24,813 nt of DNA from a virus (IMGVR_UViG_2529292921_000026), one strand, 5' to 3'. Counted from the stretch's first letter, positions 6,663 through 13,537 are shown. The notes: generated from the sequence alone by a model not told the origin. Numbers and translations are program-made.

Positions 6663-7316
6663 TCAAAAATCCATTATTACTTGTTTGACAAGACCAACTA
6701 TTCTGCAGTTCTCACCGCATTCAATAGTTTTATAGTTAGGATTTAGTGGGACGAGATACCTGTTCGGCCAGTCCTCAACAAATTTTTTGAGTGTCGCTTC
6801 TTGCCCACCATTGATATGGGCAACAACGATTTTTCCGTTAATACACTCTGTATCAATAATATCTGGCTCTACGATAACGATAGAACCTTCTGGTATCGAT
6901 GGTGAGCCGAGGGGATTGGTCATTGAATCACCACGGACCCGTAGTGCAAATGCCATTTCTGATACAAGGGCGGTAGTATAAACCCACTCTTCAGCATCTT
7001 CTTTCCTGACACCAGGCTCCGTCATTGTCCATGAACCCGCCTGAACCCACGAGATTAGGGGGACTTTTTTAACTGCGAATATTTCAGGTTTTAGATTTAT
7101 CTTTGGTTCAGGCGAGCCTTTTCCGCTAACAAGCCACAGAGGATCGCATTTAAGTGCGTTGGCTAGGGCTTGAAGGTTGGCTCCATTTGGTTGGTAGTCG
7201 TCCTTTTCCCATCCAGTAACCGTGACACGGTTCACACCAGTCAAATCAGCCAGTGCTTGTTGTGTCAGGTTCAGTTCTTTTCGCCTTTGGCGAATACGAT
7301 CACTCATGTTCATCAT
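6663..7316 (-). CDS. CI/C2-like prophage repressor (N-terminal HTH-XRE, C-terminal S24 LexA-like peptidase)
   Basis: N-terminus RIRQRRKELNLTQQALADLTGVNRVTVTGWE is an XRE-type HTH. The C-terminal domain carries the S24 self-cleavage serine motif (RVRGDSMTNP) and a catalytic Lys region. Overall it resembles P22 C2 as I recall it, and it sits between the two operator regions. Confidence 0.8.
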   Translation of the reverse strand: MMNMSDRIRQRRKELNLTQQALADLTGVNRVTVTGWEKDDYQPNGANLQALANALKCDPLWLVSGKGSPEPKINLKPEIFAVKKVPLISWVQAGSWTMTEPGVRKEDAEEWVYTTALVSEMAFALRVRGDSMTNPLGSPSIPEGSIVIVEPDIIDTECINGKIVVAHINGGQEATLKKFVEDWPNRYLVPLNPNYKTIECGENCRIVGLVKQVIMDF

Positions 7317-7338
7317 GTAGGCAATCCTACCACATGCC

Positions 7339-7380
7339 CATGTAGGATTCTTGACATTGGCATGTTGGATATCCTACATT
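7339..7380. promoter_or_regulatory. right operator/promoter (OR/PR-like) for cro and the rightward operon
   Basis: ATGTTGGATATCCTACAT (7362-7379) plus a degenerate copy ATGTAGGATTCTTGACAT (7339-7356). TTGACA (7351-7356) is followed 18 bp later by TACATT (7375-7380). A 33-bp block here is a near-exact inverted copy of 6547-6579. Confidence 0.5.
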
Positions 7381-7411
7381 TCTGCTTAACGTAATTTAAC
7401 GGGAGACAGAA

Positions 7412-7609
7412 ATGCGGAAATCCGACGTGATTAATTATTTCGGCGGAGTTTGTAAAACCGCCGAAGCCCTAGGTATTAAGCATCCGTCTGTTTCAGAGTG
7501 GCCTGAGATTATTCCTGAAGGCCGAGCGTACCAGTTAGAAAAAATTACTAACGGGAAACTGAAAGTTGACGTGTCTTTATATCAAAAGACTAACAGTGCT
7601 GCGGCATAA
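7412..7609 (+). CDS. cro: Cro-like transcriptional regulator (P22 Cro family)
   Basis: 65-aa ORF (MRKSDVINYFGG...ALGIKHPSVSEWPEIIPEGRAYQLEKIT) resembles P22 Cro as I recall it. GGGAGA RBS upstream; divergent from the repressor across the operator region. Confidence 0.7.
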   Translation: MRKSDVINYFGGVCKTAEALGIKHPSVSEWPEIIPEGRAYQLEKITNGKLKVDVSLYQKTNSAAA

Positions 7610-7636
7610 AAACACCACAGAAATGAGGAATTAACC

Positions 7637-8221
7637 GTGGGTAAAGAACCTGAATGGAAAGTTGATAAACAACCAGCATGGCTGGTGGCAGCAATACGAA
7701 GAACGATTGCTGATTTACCTCATGGCTATGAGGAAGCAGCAGAAATTCTTGGTTTGTATAAATCTGATGATATCACCCCAGCAAAAGATCAATTGCATAA
7801 CAGACTGCGTAGCGGTGGGGATCAAATTTTTCCACTTGAGTGGGCCATGGTTTTACAGGATGCCAGTGGTACCAGGCATGTAACGGATGCGATAGCGCGT
7901 CGTAGTAATGGGGTGTTTGTGCCGCTGGTGGACATTGATGACATTGACAATGGTGACATTAATCAGCGGCTGATGGAGTCAATAGAATGGATTGGCAAGC
8001 ATTCCCAGTACTTACGCAAGGCAACTGCTGATGGAGTTATTGACCAGGCTGAGCGTGAGCAAATCGAAGAGAACAGCTACCAAGTAATGGCGAAGTGGCA
8101 GGAGCATTTAACACTGTTATTTCGTGTTTTTTGTGCACCGGAAAAGAGTAACGCCCGCGAGTGTGCAGCTCCGGGCGTCGTGGCGTCGATTGCTTCTGGT
8201 TGTGGAGAAACTAACGCATGA
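7637..8221 (+). CDS. phage CII-like regulatory protein (CP76-type), putative
   Basis: GTG start at 7637 has GAGG 8 nt upstream and follows cro by 27 bp. The 194-aa product has a central helix region. Family assignment is from position and weak recall only. Confidence 0.4.
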   Translation: MGKEPEWKVDKQPAWLVAAIRRTIADLPHGYEEAAEILGLYKSDDITPAKDQLHNRLRSGGDQIFPLEWAMVLQDASGTRHVTDAIARRSNGVFVPLVDIDDIDNGDINQRLMESIEWIGKHSQYLRKATADGVIDQAEREQIEENSYQVMAKWQEHLTLLFRVFCAPEKSNARECAAPGVVASIASGCGETNA

Positions 8222-8366
8222 ACAGTTTAACGGCAAATAACCGTTTGTCGCAACAGCTGGTGGTCAGCGTCGCTGAACACCTGTTGTTACGGCATGAATG
8301 CAGATTACCAAATCACCTGGCTGTAAGTAACCACAGAGAACTTTACCTGACTGTGGGGGGCGAGTT

Positions 8367-8546
8367 GTGCAGGAACTTAACCGCTGGTTTCGTGACGGAA
8401 GAGGGCTTTATGTCCATGTTATTCGTTGGGAGCCAGAAACACAGCGCGTTATCTATCTTCGCAAAGACTACCCGCATGAGTGCTTTAGTCCTTTGTGGAA
8501 ATTCAGGCGTGATTTTGTTGAGTGTGAAGGACCACCAGCACATTGA
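8367..8546 (+). CDS. candidate small protein (59 aa) in the cII-rha gap
   Basis: Frame-3 ORF with GTG at 8367 preceded by a GGGGGG run and a 6-nt spacer. Translation MQELNRWFRDGRGLYVHVIRWEPETQRVIYLRKDYPHECFSPLWKFRRDFVECEGPPAH has protein-like composition. It is below the ORF-track cutoff and competes with a frame-1 ORF. Confidence 0.3.
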   Translation: MQELNRWFRDGRGLYVHVIRWEPETQRVIYLRKDYPHECFSPLWKFRRDFVECEGPPAH

Positions 8547-8631
8547 TTCTGCCATTCCGGGACGTTACACTGTTCAGGCACCTTATAAAGCGGGTGCCGG
8601 GATTGGCGTCCTGAAATTGATTACTGAGCAT

Positions 8632-8653
8632 AACCGCGCTCATGCGGTTTTTT
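8632..8653 (+). terminator. weak terminator-like hairpin plus T-run (tR-like)
   Basis: AACCGC(8632-8637)-GCTCAT-GCGGTT(8644-8649) followed by TTTT (8650-8653), within the 600-bp stretch between the CII-like and Rha-like genes. Confidence 0.3.
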
Positions 8654-8823
8654 CGTGTCATGAGCATTGCTACGCCCAAATTATGGTGGGGCGTACAGGG
8701 CCGACTTCGGTCGGGCCGGGTTCGGTAGTCTCCGGTAACGCCAACCCTGTACGTCTCACCACCTCTGTGATTGGCGTCCCATGTGGTGAGTTTTCTGAAA
8801 AACTGACTACCGGGGCTGTCACC

Positions 8824-9381
8824 ATGACTACTCTCCCAACCCTCTCTCAACCTGAAATTGCCATCGTTGATGGTCAGGCTGTTACATCTTCTTTGGCTGT
8901 TGCTGACTTCTTCTCTAAACGTCATGACGATGTTCTGAAAAAGATCCGCATTTTGGATTGTTCTCCAGAGTTTTGTGCCCGCAATTTTGCGGAGACATCA
9001 ATTTTGGTACACCAGCCCAACGGCGGTACTCGCAAACTTCCTTGCTACCACATCACCCGTGACGGCTTCGCGTTCCTGGCAATGGGCTTCACTGGCAAAC
9101 GTGCTGCCCAGTTCAAAGAGGCATACATCAATGCCTTTAACCAGATGGAGAAACAGCTTTCAAAGCCCTCTGTACCGAGCGACGTTGCACATAACGCCAG
9201 CGTTCTCTATTCCTACATTTCATCAATTCATCAGGTCTGGTTGCAGCAGCTTTATCCCATGCTGGAAAAAGCTGAATCACCGCTGGCTGTAAGTCTGTAT
9301 GACCGAATTAACGATGCGGCATTTCTTGCCCGTCTTATTCATTCGTCGCTGAACTCTTCAGAGGTAAGGGGGCGCAAATGA
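8824..9381 (+). CDS. Rha-family phage regulatory protein
   Basis: N-terminal IAIVDGQAVTSSLAVADFFSKRHDDVLKKIR matches the Rha-domain signature (V-T-S-L-x-IAE-x-FGKRHxxVLRxI). ATG at 8824 has GGGG 8 nt upstream. The ORF track's 387-aa version adds a 200-aa upstream extension that I consider unlikely. Confidence 0.6.
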   Translation: MTTLPTLSQPEIAIVDGQAVTSSLAVADFFSKRHDDVLKKIRILDCSPEFCARNFAETSILVHQPNGGTRKLPCYHITRDGFAFLAMGFTGKRAAQFKEAYINAFNQMEKQLSKPSVPSDVAHNASVLYSYISSIHQVWLQQLYPMLEKAESPLAVSLYDRINDAAFLARLIHSSLNSSEVRGRK

Positions 9382-9602
9382 TCCGGAATATTTTCAAACG
9401 ATTTACCAATCAGACTTTCCGTTGTCCTCGCCCCGGTCAGTGGTACACCACGCCTGCAGGGCATGTTCTACGTGTTAGCCTGGTTGACCGTGAATGTCAG
9501 AAGGTGATTTGTGAACCGCTGGGCCGTAATTACCGCGTCAGTATGCCGCTTATAGCCTTTCGCTCCGGAAAAAACATGAAGCATCTCGGAGGTGCGGCAT
9601 GA
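9378..9602 (+). CDS. hypothetical small protein (74 aa)
   Basis: ATG at 9378 overlaps the Rha stop (ATGA) and its own stop overlaps the next start (ATGA). AAGGGGG RBS upstream. The tight coupling supports a real gene. Confidence 0.4.
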   Translation: MIRNIFKRFTNQTFRCPRPGQWYTTPAGHVLRVSLVDRECQKVICEPLGRNYRVSMPLIAFRSGKNMKHLGGAA

Positions 9603-10591
9603 GCCTGTTAATGACATCCCAGCCCATTGTGATAAATCGTGATCTTGCATGCCGTATTGGTCTGAATGAGGCAATTGTGTTGCAGCAGCTTCATTACTGG
9701 CTGAATGAAACGAATTCAGGCACTGAGCATGGCGGAATTCGCTGGGTTTATAACACGACAGAACAGTGGCTGGAGCAGTTTCCGTTCTGGTCAGAGTCCA
9801 CTCTGAAACGCACATTTGCAAGCCTGAAATCACTTGGGGTTTTGCGTCGCGAGCAACTCAATAAATCGAAGCGTGACATGACCAACTTCTACACGATCAA
9901 CTATGAAAGTGAGCTTTTAGAAGAGGTCAAAGTGAACGAATCAATCAGGTCAAAATGCACTTCTCCATCGGGTCAAAGTGACCTGATGGATGGGCGCAAA
10001 ATGACACGATCCATTGGTTCAAAACGACACGCTGTCATCGGGTCAAAATGGCCCAATGATCTTACAGAGAATACAACAGAGATTACTACAGAGAATAAAA
10101 CCTCTTCTCGTCCGGACGCTTCGCAACCGGACACGCAAACGGCTGAACAGGAGTTTTTAACTCGCCATCCTGATGCGGTTGTATTCAGCCCTAAAAAGCG
10201 CCAGTGGGGAACGCAGGATGATTTGACCTGCGCACAGTGGCTCTGGAAAAAAATCATCGCCCTGTACGAGCAGGCCGCCGAATGTGACGGCGAGGTGGTT
10301 CGTCCCAAAGAACCGAACTGGACAGCCTGGGCAAACGAAATTCGCCTGATGTGTGTGCAGGATGGTCGTACCCACAAACAAATCTGCGAGATGTACAGCC
10401 GCGTCAGCCGCGATCCGTTCTGGTGCCGTAACGTGCTCAGCCCGTCGAAGTTGCGGGAAAAATGGGATGAGCTTTCCCTGCGCTTATCGCCGTCCGTCAG
10501 CACGCACACAGAAAAACGTGAAGACCCGTACTTCAAAGCCAGTTACGACAACGTGGACTACAGCCAGATCCCGGCAGGATTCAGGGGGTGA
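9599..10591 (+). CDS. phage replication initiation protein (O-like/YfdO-like, iteron-binding)
   Basis: 330-aa ORF with GGAGGTG RBS, in the position of lambdoid O. Like lambda O, it contains an internal iteron array followed by an A-rich tract. Confidence 0.65.
   Translation: MSLLMTSQPIVINRDLACRIGLNEAIVLQQLHYWLNETNSGTEHGGIRWVYNTTEQWLEQFPFWSESTLKRTFASLKSLGVLRREQLNKSKRDMTNFYTINYESELLEEVKVNESIRSKCTSPSGQSDLMDGRKMTRSIGSKRHAVIGSKWPNDLTENTTEITTENKTSSRPDASQPDTQTAEQEFLTRHPDAVVFSPKKRQWGTQDDLTCAQWLWKKIIALYEQAAECDGEVVRPKEPNWTAWANEIRLMCVQDGRTHKQICEMYSRVSRDPFWCRNVLSPSKLREKWDELSLRLSPSVSTHTEKREDPYFKASYDNVDYSQIPAGFRG
9924..10100. repeat. putative origin of replication: six 14-bp iterons at 23-bp spacing plus an A-rich tract, inside the initiator gene
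   Basis: Copies of (G)GGTCAAARTGAC begin at 9924, 9947, 9970, 9993, 10016 and 10040. They are followed by ACAGAGAATACAACAGAGATTACTACAGAGAATAAAAC (10061-10100). Confidence 0.5.
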
Positions 10592-10593
10592 TC

Positions 10594-11081
10594 ATGAGTC
10601 TGTTAAATGACGTTCAGAAATTCATTGAAGCCCATCCGGGCTGTACTTCCGGAGACATTGCGGATGCTTTTGCAGGTTACTCACGGCAGCGCGTTCTGCA
10701 GTCAGCAAGCAAGTTACGTCAGAGTGGGCGTGTGGCTCACCGTTGTGAAGGAGATACACACAGACATTTCCCGCGCCTGACTGAGAGAGCGCAGGATCCG
10801 GAACTACAACCAGTTCGTGAAACCAGACCTGTGCGCAATTTCTATGTCGGCACTAACGACCCGCGGGTGATTTTGTGCCTGACCCGCCAGGCGGAAGAAC
10901 TGGAGTCCAGGGGCTTATACCGTCGTGCTGCAACGGTGTGGATGGCGGCATTCCGTGAAAGCCACTCCCAGCCAGAACGAAACAATTTTCTGGCGCGTCG
11001 TGAACGGTGTTTACGGAAAAGCAGTAAGCGGGCTGCATCAGGTGAAGAGTGGTATCTCTCAGGGAATTACGTGGGGGCTTA

Positions 11082-11082
<1 letters not shown>
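10594..11082 (+). CDS. PerC/ANR-like putative transcriptional regulator
   Basis: ATG at 10594 has GGGGG 5 nt upstream. The C-terminal motif LESRGLYRRAATVWMAAF...ERNNFLARRERC resembles the PerC-family signature as I recall it. Confidence 0.4.

Positions 11083-13537
<2,455 letters not shown>

Follow-up and report, generated by a model that had tools for sequence, protein, structure and literature searches.

The window analysed here is a stretch of viral DNA of 24,813 nt (IMGVR_UViG_2529292921_000026), in which a gene encoding a replication initiator contains, within its own reading frame, an array of six iterons followed by three 12-nt repeat units (Table 1). The gene forms part of a lambdoid prophage, in its rightward early operon. 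The interval between the cI-like repressor gene and cro carries a pR-like promoter accompanied by palindromic operator-like repeats and, judging from the layout of the operon, transcription from this promoter would run through the putative origin described below. No P-, DnaC- or DnaB-like gene was found beside the initiator gene in the window, in mEp460_4F5, in HannyBb or in SfII, and these loci thus offer no adjacent partner for the helicase-loading step. To the right of the IS21-family element that interrupts the dam-like gene, the DNA consists throughout of IS and CP4-like island sequences of non-phage nature. The prophage is therefore decayed in the window, and its origin may never fire in this genome.

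Table 1. Genes, protein domains and putative origin elements at the initiator locus, with positions counted from the first nucleotide of the window.
Feature	Position	Strand	Evidence or remark
cI-like repressor gene	6663-7316	-	
pR-like promoter upstream of cro	7351-7380	+	TTGACA-18-TACATT, consensus match 10/12 only
cro	7412-7609		
cII-like gene	7637-8221		
isrK and C4 antisense RNA matches, Ash/Rha domains	8218-9381		
DUF4222 gene	9378-9602		directly upstream of the initiator gene
Replication initiator gene, 330 aa, containing the putative origin elements	9599-10591	+	ORF, PHROG 391
Predicted N-terminal winged-helix-like DNA-binding domain, aa 1-109	9599-9925	+	AF2 model, fold match
Iteron 1, GGTCAAAGTGAAC	9925-9937	+	
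Iteron 2, GGTCAAAATGCAC	9948-9960	+	
Iteron 3, GGTCAAAGTGACC	9971-9983	+	perfect palindrome
Iteron 4, GCGCAAAATGACA	9994-10006	+	degenerate
Iteron 5, GTTCAAAACGACA	10017-10029	+	degenerate
Iteron 6, GGTCAAAATGGCC	10041-10053	+	centre 18 nt 5' of the first CAGAGA
Three 12-nt units ACAGAGAnTAC(n), proposed DNA-unwinding element	10064-10099	+	TRF, GC content, duplex stability, conservation
Right border, mosaic joint with SfII-type genes	10100-10135	+	SfII alignment; role uncertain
C-terminal helical domain homologous to the lambda O C-domain	10139-10492	+	BLASTP, AF2 model
PerC-like gene	10588-11082		directly downstream of the initiator gene
dam-like gene			cut at about 11236 by the IS21-family element, ~650 bp downstream of the initiator gene
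istA of the IS21-family element	11320-12342		
istB of the IS21-family element	12339-13121		

The initiator gene and its product

The encoded protein aligns from aa 1 to aa 330 with the complete profile PHROG 391 ('replication initiation O-like'; E 1.3e-101, positions 1-298 of 298), and the open reading frame is 98% identical to a gene of mEp460_4F5 annotated 'Primosomal protein I'. Scans of the 330-aa protein against Pfam (E<=0.01) and NCBIfam returned no match, nor did sequence searches of the PDB with either the whole protein or the N-domain profile. RefSeq entries for the gene uniformly read 'hypothetical protein'. In its C-terminal half the initiator is a homologue of lambda O, since BLASTP aligns aa 147-294 with the C-terminal part of that protein (33% identity over 148 aa, E 1e-26). 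The first-pass annotation, which had taken this frame for a replication initiator gene, is therefore supported. The homology does not extend to the N-terminal half: comparison of the N-domain profile with lambda O by hhalign gave a probability of 0.2%, and no Phage_rep_O match was obtained. The initiator is thus not a full homologue of lambda O, and that candidate assignment was excluded.

In the AF2 model, the N-domain reaches pLDDT values of 70-92 (means of 10-residue blocks) and is predicted to adopt a helix-strand-helix-helix-wing topology. The PDB fold closest to it is that of 5kbj, a Rep-DNA complex of RepA_N type (E 0.043), and generic winged-helix regulators come next; all these matches are weak, with 5kbj and 4pql at E 0.04-0.08 and none at E <= 0.001. 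The helices of the C-domain are predicted at aa 183-295. Between the two domains, aa 110-180 have pLDDT values below 50 and are predicted to form a disordered linker; the DNA encoding this low-confidence segment coincides exactly with the iterons, the tract and the palindrome that comes next. Codons 109-152 hold the iterons and codons 156-167 the tract, in both cases between the N-domain (aa 1-109) and the C-domain (aa 181-298). As they lie in a stretch coding for a predicted disordered linker, the constraint exerted there by the protein is expected to be weak. Three short homologues (P0045, P0033 and P0083) are interrupted or frameshifted genes.

Iterons and tract are constrained as DNA

The six iterons are plus-strand matches to GGTCAAARTGAC with 0-2 mismatches, separated by steps of 23, 23, 23, 23 and 24 bp and extending together over 9925-10053. 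Tandem Repeats Finder (TRF) independently delimited a 23-bp array of 5.4 copies at 9925-10050. The six copies listed in the first-pass annotation are consequently real and stand at 23-24 bp steps; the sites it gave were the right ones, although each of its start coordinates included one extra 5' base. The iteron unit is a 13-bp palindrome of the form NNN-CA-WWW-TG-NNN, whose best copy is GGTCAAAGTGACC. The third copy is the only one that matches GGTCAAARTGAC perfectly (GGTCAAAGTGAC) and forms a perfect 5+3+5 palindrome, GGTCA-AAG-TGACC; the second, fourth and fifth (GGTCAAAATGCA, GCGCAAAATGAC and GTTCAAAACGAC) differ from the pattern at two positions each and are the most degenerate. Because the palindrome is imperfect in four of the six iterons, their occupancy may be unequal.

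Over the whole window, the number of matches to the pattern is unremarkable (8, against 4.9 +/- 2.3 in shuffled sequences). Their clustering is remarkable: six same-strand matches fall within 140 bp, compared with a maximum of two in 300 dinucleotide-preserving shuffles, and chance was rejected as an explanation of the cluster; as the pattern was itself derived from these data, the weight of the argument rests on the independent TRF result and on the comparative data presented below. The other two matches in the window are scattered and at chance level, and were rejected as extra iteron copies for handcuffing. No Rfam family was found at the site of the iterons and tract. An inverted half-iteron at 10222-10237 falls in a conserved coding stretch (DDLTCAQW) and is probably coincidental.

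The A-rich tract was found exactly as it had been quoted, at 10064-10101. It is composed of the units ACAGAGAATACA, ACAGAGATTACT and ACAGAGAATAAA, and TRF describes it over the same interval as a 12-bp array of 3.2 copies of ACAGAGAATACA. Its top strand is purine-rich (27 of 38 positions) and the GC content at 10060-10099 is 0.30. The least stable 37-bp duplex of the gene is located here, at 10062-10100, with -41.3 kcal/mol against -51.5 +/- 3.5 kcal/mol, that is about 2.9 SD less stable than the gene mean; 0.13% of the positions in 7400-11300 are less stable than the tract. The description 'A-rich' is thus accurate, but the tract is not merely A-rich: it is a specific 12-mer repeat and, as shown below, a widely conserved one.

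The constraint acting on these elements was assessed from the mean pairwise difference at each codon position among 15 dereplicated relatives, whose N-domains are 77-100% identical and which are collinear without indels. At codon positions 1, 2 and 3, this difference amounts to 0.118, 0.055 and 0.393 in the N-domain, to 0.155, 0.121 and 0.176 in the iteron region and to 0.000, 0.171 and 0.022 in the 12-mer tract. The three-base periodicity of coding sequence is thus lost in the iterons. The positions of the 23-nt unit that are invariant or nearly so in these relatives are CAAA, T-G and an A/T pair in the spacer.

A repeat selected at the protein level, or a low-complexity linker devoid of function as DNA, would agree with the 12-nt period of the tract, which equals four codons and is nearly always read Thr-Glu-x-Thr, and with the predicted disorder of the segment encoded by the region. 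The remaining observations speak against such an explanation. The 23-nt period of the iterons spreads the units over all three frames, so that they are read successively as VK, RSK, GQS, RKM, GSK and GSK. Relative to the N-domain, synonymous diversity is about 2-fold lower in the iterons and about 18-fold lower in the tract, whose sole variable position among the 15 relatives is non-synonymous. Even low-GC Bacillota keep the GAG and ACA codons of the tract; in several loci neighbouring tract units are 11 nt apart, which places one of them in another frame. Finally, the 8.4-kb Bacillus plasmid pBSG3 carries a stand-alone non-coding module, in which three CCTACAGGGAAA repeats are followed by three tract units in DNA without an initiator ORF. 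The codon-position data, the 11-nt spacing and the non-coding copy of pBSG3 refute for practical purposes the protein-repeat explanation, whose probability we regard as negligible. Iterons and tract are constrained as DNA and not as protein, in agreement with what the first-pass annotation had deduced for the repeats from their period.

Distribution of the elements and covariation with the initiator

The N-domain belongs to a family of 10,549 clusters at 50% identity (E<=1e-3) for which no Pfam model exists. A relative of the N-domain half with its iterons is present in 1840 of 5426 complete Escherichia coli genomes, one instance being the Qin prophage carried by B strains (C41(DE3)). A scan of one genome per GTDB species retrieved 80 loci with N-domains 47-81% identical, in hosts belonging to the Enterobacterales, Pseudomonas, Acinetobacter, Comamonas, Campylobacterales, Bacillus, Staphylococcus, Clostridia and Bacteroidota. 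Most of these loci carry an array of 13-bp palindromes 3' of the N-domain, mostly of 3-7 copies spaced by 22-24 bp, and the centre of the last palindrome usually lies 15-18 nt before the first CAGAGAnTAC unit. The tract itself was found in 74 of the 80 loci, across several phyla. The six loci that lack it all come from Bacillus or Neobacillus and are also devoid of a 22-24-bp iteron array.

The conservation of the tract was quantified in 70 distinct loci by an alignment anchored on the first unit, which leaves the second unit free of search bias. The positions of this second unit reach C.86, A.87, G.80, A.91, G.84, A.91, n, T.86, A.87 and C.79. The iteron columns of the same alignment remain below 0.6, so that, across phyla, conservation is stronger in the tract than in the iterons. 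The G and C positions of the tract persist from phylum to phylum, and so do the GAG and ACA codons, low-GC hosts included.

The tract also occurs beyond this N-domain family. An exact-pattern scan of IMG/VR for two adjacent tract units matched at least 120 stretches. Among the 120 matches listed, 72 have the N-domain type of the window upstream, and the other 48 combine the same tract with quite different iteron arrays; the initiators of these 48 possess other winged-helix N-domains, joined to C-domains that are lambda-O-like, of the Phg_2220_C or DnaT-like type, or unknown. Used as sole query, a 51-nt sequence of the tract retrieved 123 phage records from many genera, in which the matches listed almost always fall within a gene annotated as replication initiator. 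These genes come from phages of Acinetobacter, Bacillus, Staphylococcus, Klebsiella and Pseudomonas, from Stx phages and from others. Literature searches with the tract motif (ACAGAGAATAC, ACAGAGATTAC) and with the peptide TEITTE and its variants gave unrelated papers only; a prior description is possible, as older reviews were not covered.

Of the by-products of this analysis, the conserved 12-mer tract is the most interesting. Its units recur every 11-12 nt; the tract keeps a constant distance to iteron arrays of many specificities, from Pseudomonadota to Bacillota and Bacteroidota, and adjoins initiators with differing C-terminal domains. We tentatively suggest that the ACAGAGAnTAC units may constitute a sequence-specific element common to the origins of a very large superfamily of phages, and of some plasmids, with a role beyond AT-rich unwinding. 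If this were true, the tract would be read either by some part of the initiator that is itself conserved, for instance through strand-specific binding of melted DNA as in TrfA and RepE, or by a universally conserved component of the replisome.

The relationship between the initiator and its iterons could be addressed by covariation. The outer arms of the palindrome vary by lineage, being GGTCA, GGGCA or GTGCA, GGACA, GTTCA, or TGCCA. A single column of the N-domain, residue 67, carries all the information on the arm base beside CA. This residue is Ser in the window (codon 9797-9799, in the motif FPFWSE-S-TLKR) and belongs to the first turn of the helix predicted to serve in recognition (aa 66-79). 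Among the 62 distinct N-domains of the GTDB set, Ser67 is paired with T in 35 of 37 cases, Asp with G in 16 of 17 and Lys with A in 6 of 6, and Asn or Arg are found with C. Residue 67 and the arm base share 1.44 bits of mutual information, which is the whole of the label entropy, and the next column reaches 0.83. A UPGMA tree requires about 11 changes of the arm base and about 12 of residue 67, amounting to about 11 independent switches; this parsimony count is the only way in which kinship enters the covariation statistics. In the closest pair of different class (Lys/GGACA and Asp/GGGCA), the rest of the domain is 91% identical. The rule was replicated in IMG/VR with 38 distinct N-domains, where Asp accompanies G (9/9), Ser T (17/17), Lys A (3/4), Asn C (1/1) and Met, Ile, Pro or Ala T (6/6). 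Initiator and iterons have therefore co-evolved. Extending over about 100 distinct relatives from several phyla, this covariation argues that the initiator reads the repeats; although indirect, it is, biochemistry aside, the strongest evidence that the iterons of the window are recognised by their initiator.

The literature searched, from which older reviews were missing, contains no description of the N-domain family, of the rule linking residue 67 to the arm base or of the 12-mer tract. The added value of the present analysis resides in these three elements: a very large unnamed N-domain family, a one-residue/one-base rule and a tract spanning phyla. Once the iterons and tract are recognised, the origin can be annotated in a large proportion of temperate phages. 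The association of Ser with T, Asp with G and Lys with A could serve to predict or re-engineer replication specificity and incompatibility.

Comparison with known origins and competing readings

The location of the origin inside the initiator gene is a textbook feature of lambdoid phages. In lambda and the Stx phages it occupies the middle of gene O, where iterons are followed by an AT-rich tract (PMC7466680). The elements of the window resemble it in several respects. They comprise direct repeats that are dyad-symmetric around a central A-tract, for which the spacing in lambda is 20-24 bp, and their number, six, is that of the iterons of Stx phages 933W and P27 (PMC7466680). An AT-rich, strand-asymmetric tract comes directly after the iterons. 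The initiator has a homologous C-domain, the module is located after cro and cII in the rightward early operon, and in the BLASTP alignment the repeats and tract are collinear with the annotated iterons and AT-rich region of lambda. Other features set the locus apart: the N-domain is unrelated to that of lambda O by Pfam or hhalign, the iteron sequence differs, no P gene follows, and three well-defined ACAGAGAnTAC units replace a loosely A-rich stretch. The parallel with lambda drawn in the first-pass annotation consequently holds for the position of repeats and tract and for the C-domain, but fails for the N-domain, for a P-type loader gene and for a plain A-rich tract.

Plasmids of the RepA_N group provide a second point of comparison. 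In pSK41, the N-terminal domain of the initiator binds Rep boxes located centrally in rep, the origin encodes the linker of the protein and the C-terminal domain is host-specific (PMC5703833). RepA_N iterons are described as inverted repeats or semi-palindromes converging on poly-A (PMC7145576). The window shares with the plasmids pSK41 and pTZ2162, and with the RepA of Vibrio PLE, an initiator in three parts, namely a winged-helix N-terminal domain (predicted here), an origin-encoded linker and a variable C-terminal domain. It also shares with RepA_N systems semi-palindromic origin repeats situated centrally in the rep gene (compare PMC5703833, PMC7145576). It differs from them in that the initiator has no Pfam match to RepA_N (PF06970), no sequence match in the PDB and a weak fold match (E 0.043), in its phage context and in a C-terminal domain of lambda-O-like rather than DnaG-binding type. 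Considering both comparisons, we judge it highly likely that the locus is an origin of lambda/RepA_N style placed inside its own initiator gene.

A third parallel concerns the tract. In RK2, F and R6K, the repeats of the unwinding region, once melted, are bound on one strand by the Rep protein, and the sequence of these repeats matters in addition to their AT content (PMC4081077). As with the 13-mers of RK2 oriV bound by TrfA, and as in F and R6K, the iterons of the window stand beside a proposed unwinding element made of short repeats whose G/C positions are kept. By analogy, the tract may be a target for the initiator as single-stranded DNA. Unlike origins of the RK2, F or pSC101 type, the locus has no DnaA boxes (none matching TTATNCACA with <=1 mismatch in 8634-11253), and its initiator combines a single predicted winged-helix domain with a C-domain of lambda-O type. 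The 12-mer thus offers a handle on how DNA is opened by single-domain winged-helix initiators operating without DnaA and, here, without a phage-encoded loader.

Taken together, these data lead us to consider the array as very probably the replication origin of a lambdoid prophage, located inside the gene of its own initiator, from which replication would be fired as follows. Dimers of the N-terminal winged-helix domain would bind the six 13-bp palindromic iterons, with residue 67 at the start of the recognition helix reading the base that flanks the CA..TG core. A phasing of 23 bp, corresponding to two slightly underwound helical turns, would set these dimers on roughly one face of the DNA and would allow the formation of an O-some-like higher-order complex. 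This complex could then stress and melt the three adjacent ACAGAGAnTAC units, located 18 nt from the centre of the last iteron, and the lambda-O-like C-terminal domain would bring in the host helicase machinery. The literature searched holds no replication data for this group of phages.

Two other readings must be weighed against an intragenic origin. The repeats could be initiator sites with a control function only, in autoregulation, in titration or handcuffing, or in the exclusion of related phages, and replication would then start elsewhere. Covariation indeed speaks to recognition and not to initiation, plasmid iterons are known to assume control roles, and the gene for a helicase loader is not adjacent. 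Against this reading, nearly all relatives have an easily melted and conserved tract at a constant distance behind the last iteron, which is a hallmark of origins; the window has no other iteron cluster, and the layout is that of lambda and pSK41, whose intragenic repeats are the origin. We consequently regard a control function alone as improbable. The array might also be a fossil, a former origin now unused and drifting in a decayed prophage, as the IS21-family insertion and the IS and CP4-like island genes of the right arm would suggest. The initiator ORF is nevertheless intact and 100% identical to the protein in 207 member sequences; the first 522 nt of the gene, comprising N-domain, iterons and tract, are 100% identical to those of an E. 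coli prophage with a complete right arm, and the part coding for the N-domain is identical in many viral contigs. A drifting fossil is therefore very improbable and, in any case, would concern the activity of the element in this genome and not its identity as an origin.

The interpretation as an intragenic origin is complemented by the mosaic structure of the gene. From about 10090-10104 on, its C-terminal half is 97-98% identical at the nucleotide level to the 'O protein' genes of SfII/SfIV/SfV type, and the locus also resembles SfII-type loci in its downstream genes (PerC-like, dam, LexA-like and RusA). Unlike in the window, the N-domain of the SfII type is HTH_36/GntR-like, and its repeats consist of four copies of TCTGACCCGTCAAAA at 15-bp spacing with no ACAGAGA tract. 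The joint falls right after the tract, and this comparison shows that the N-domain is exchanged jointly with its iterons and tract, as a single unit of specificity. On the evidence of these alignments, the three are one exchangeable module and the C-domain is another. Such exchange of modules is a classic pattern among lambdoid phages. The right border of the module also displays a 10-bp palindrome, CGTCCGGACG (10109-10118), and a direct repeat, CTTCTCGTCCGGAC / CTTCGCAACCGGAC.

A repeat tract common to different predicted origins

The ACAGAGAnTAC unit, repeated with a period of 11-12 nt, is kept across phyla (window 10064-10099; relatives at loci L092-L291). The tract that it forms also adjoins unrelated iteron arrays, located inside initiators with different N- and C-domains, as encountered in IMG/VR matches. 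Among the matches listed, which number at least 120, the N-domain of the window type is absent from 48 of 120 tract-bearing stretches. From these sequence comparisons, the tract looks like a module common to a far larger class of phage origins.

Over about 100 distinct relatives, one base in the iteron arms is predicted by a single amino acid, residue 67, which lies where the predicted recognition helix begins. Serine is paired with T, aspartate with G, lysine with A and asparagine or arginine with C, while a hydrophobic residue corresponds to T.

A stand-alone copy of an iteron-plus-tract module was uncovered on pBSG3, an 8.4-kb Bacillus plasmid of the rolling-circle type. Three copies of CCTACAGGGAAA, spaced by ~21-23 bp, directly precede three ACAGAGATTAC units, and the stretch that holds them is devoid of any initiator ORF. 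The module may be a copy of a phage origin that serves for hitch-hiking or acts as a decoy.

Location of the features discussed in the text
Feature	Location	Description
Operator-like repeats	window 7310-7385	palindromic, CATGTAGG..CCTACATG type; between cI-like and cro genes
isrK	window 8578-8654	Rfam match, 59 bits
C4 antisense RNA	window 8679-8766	Rfam match, 82 bits
Ser67 codon	window 9797-9799	
istA	window 11320-12342	IS21-family element
istB	window 12339-13121	IS21-family element
Iteron-plus-tract copy	NC_014104.1 (locus L292), 740-845	plasmid pBSG3

Variation among relatives of the initiator

The initiator gene of Shigella phage SfII possesses its own array (locus L003, 2868-3010) at a position equivalent to that of the window iterons, composed of four copies of TCTGACCCGTCAAAA at 15-bp spacing, extra copies of CCGTCAGA and an A-rich stretch. 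Initiators of this type share the C-domain of the window gene but differ in their N-domain. Many members of the N-domain family, 400-880 aa in length (proteins P0243, P0249-P0260 and others), carry two matched N-domain stretches, which correspond to tandem duplications of the winged-helix domain.

Several database 'proteins' of this family display an early stop and a tract read in another frame (LLQRIQQRILQR), and one gene of the family is interrupted by a resolvase gene (early-stop or interrupted cases: proteins P0036, P0046 and P0062; loci L088 and L090). Frameshifts or indels may arise readily in the region of the 23-nt repeats. In six Bacillus/Neobacillus relatives (loci L152, L157, L158, L164, L165 and L168), neither a 22-24-bp iteron array nor a tract was found 3' of the N-domain, and L152 carries a 27-nt repeat in place of the array. 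The origins of these six relatives may be located elsewhere.

Surroundings of the proposed origin in the prophage

Upstream of the initiator gene, the operator-like repeats comprise a 22-bp repeat at 7339-7380 (TRF) and overlap a pR-like promoter. The isrK and C4 matches fall within 8218-9381, called mechanically as a single 387-aa Ash+Rha ORF; the 8578-8766 segment, which lies after cII and before the replication gene, probably corresponds to a P1/P7-like antirepressor control region.

On the right side, the phage dam-like gene (start 11083) is interrupted at about 11236 by an IS21-family element. The remainder of the window encodes a transposase fragment and YagK/YfjJ-like, GTPase, WYL, DUF932 and CbeA-antitoxin genes; beyond the IS21-family element, the window is a CP4-like island and not a phage right arm.

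The phage itself encodes a Dam-like methylase, and two GATC sites are found within the origin (10008-10011 and 10058-10061). One of them sits precisely where the tract meets the last iteron (TGATCTTACAGAG), and many enterobacterial relatives retain it.
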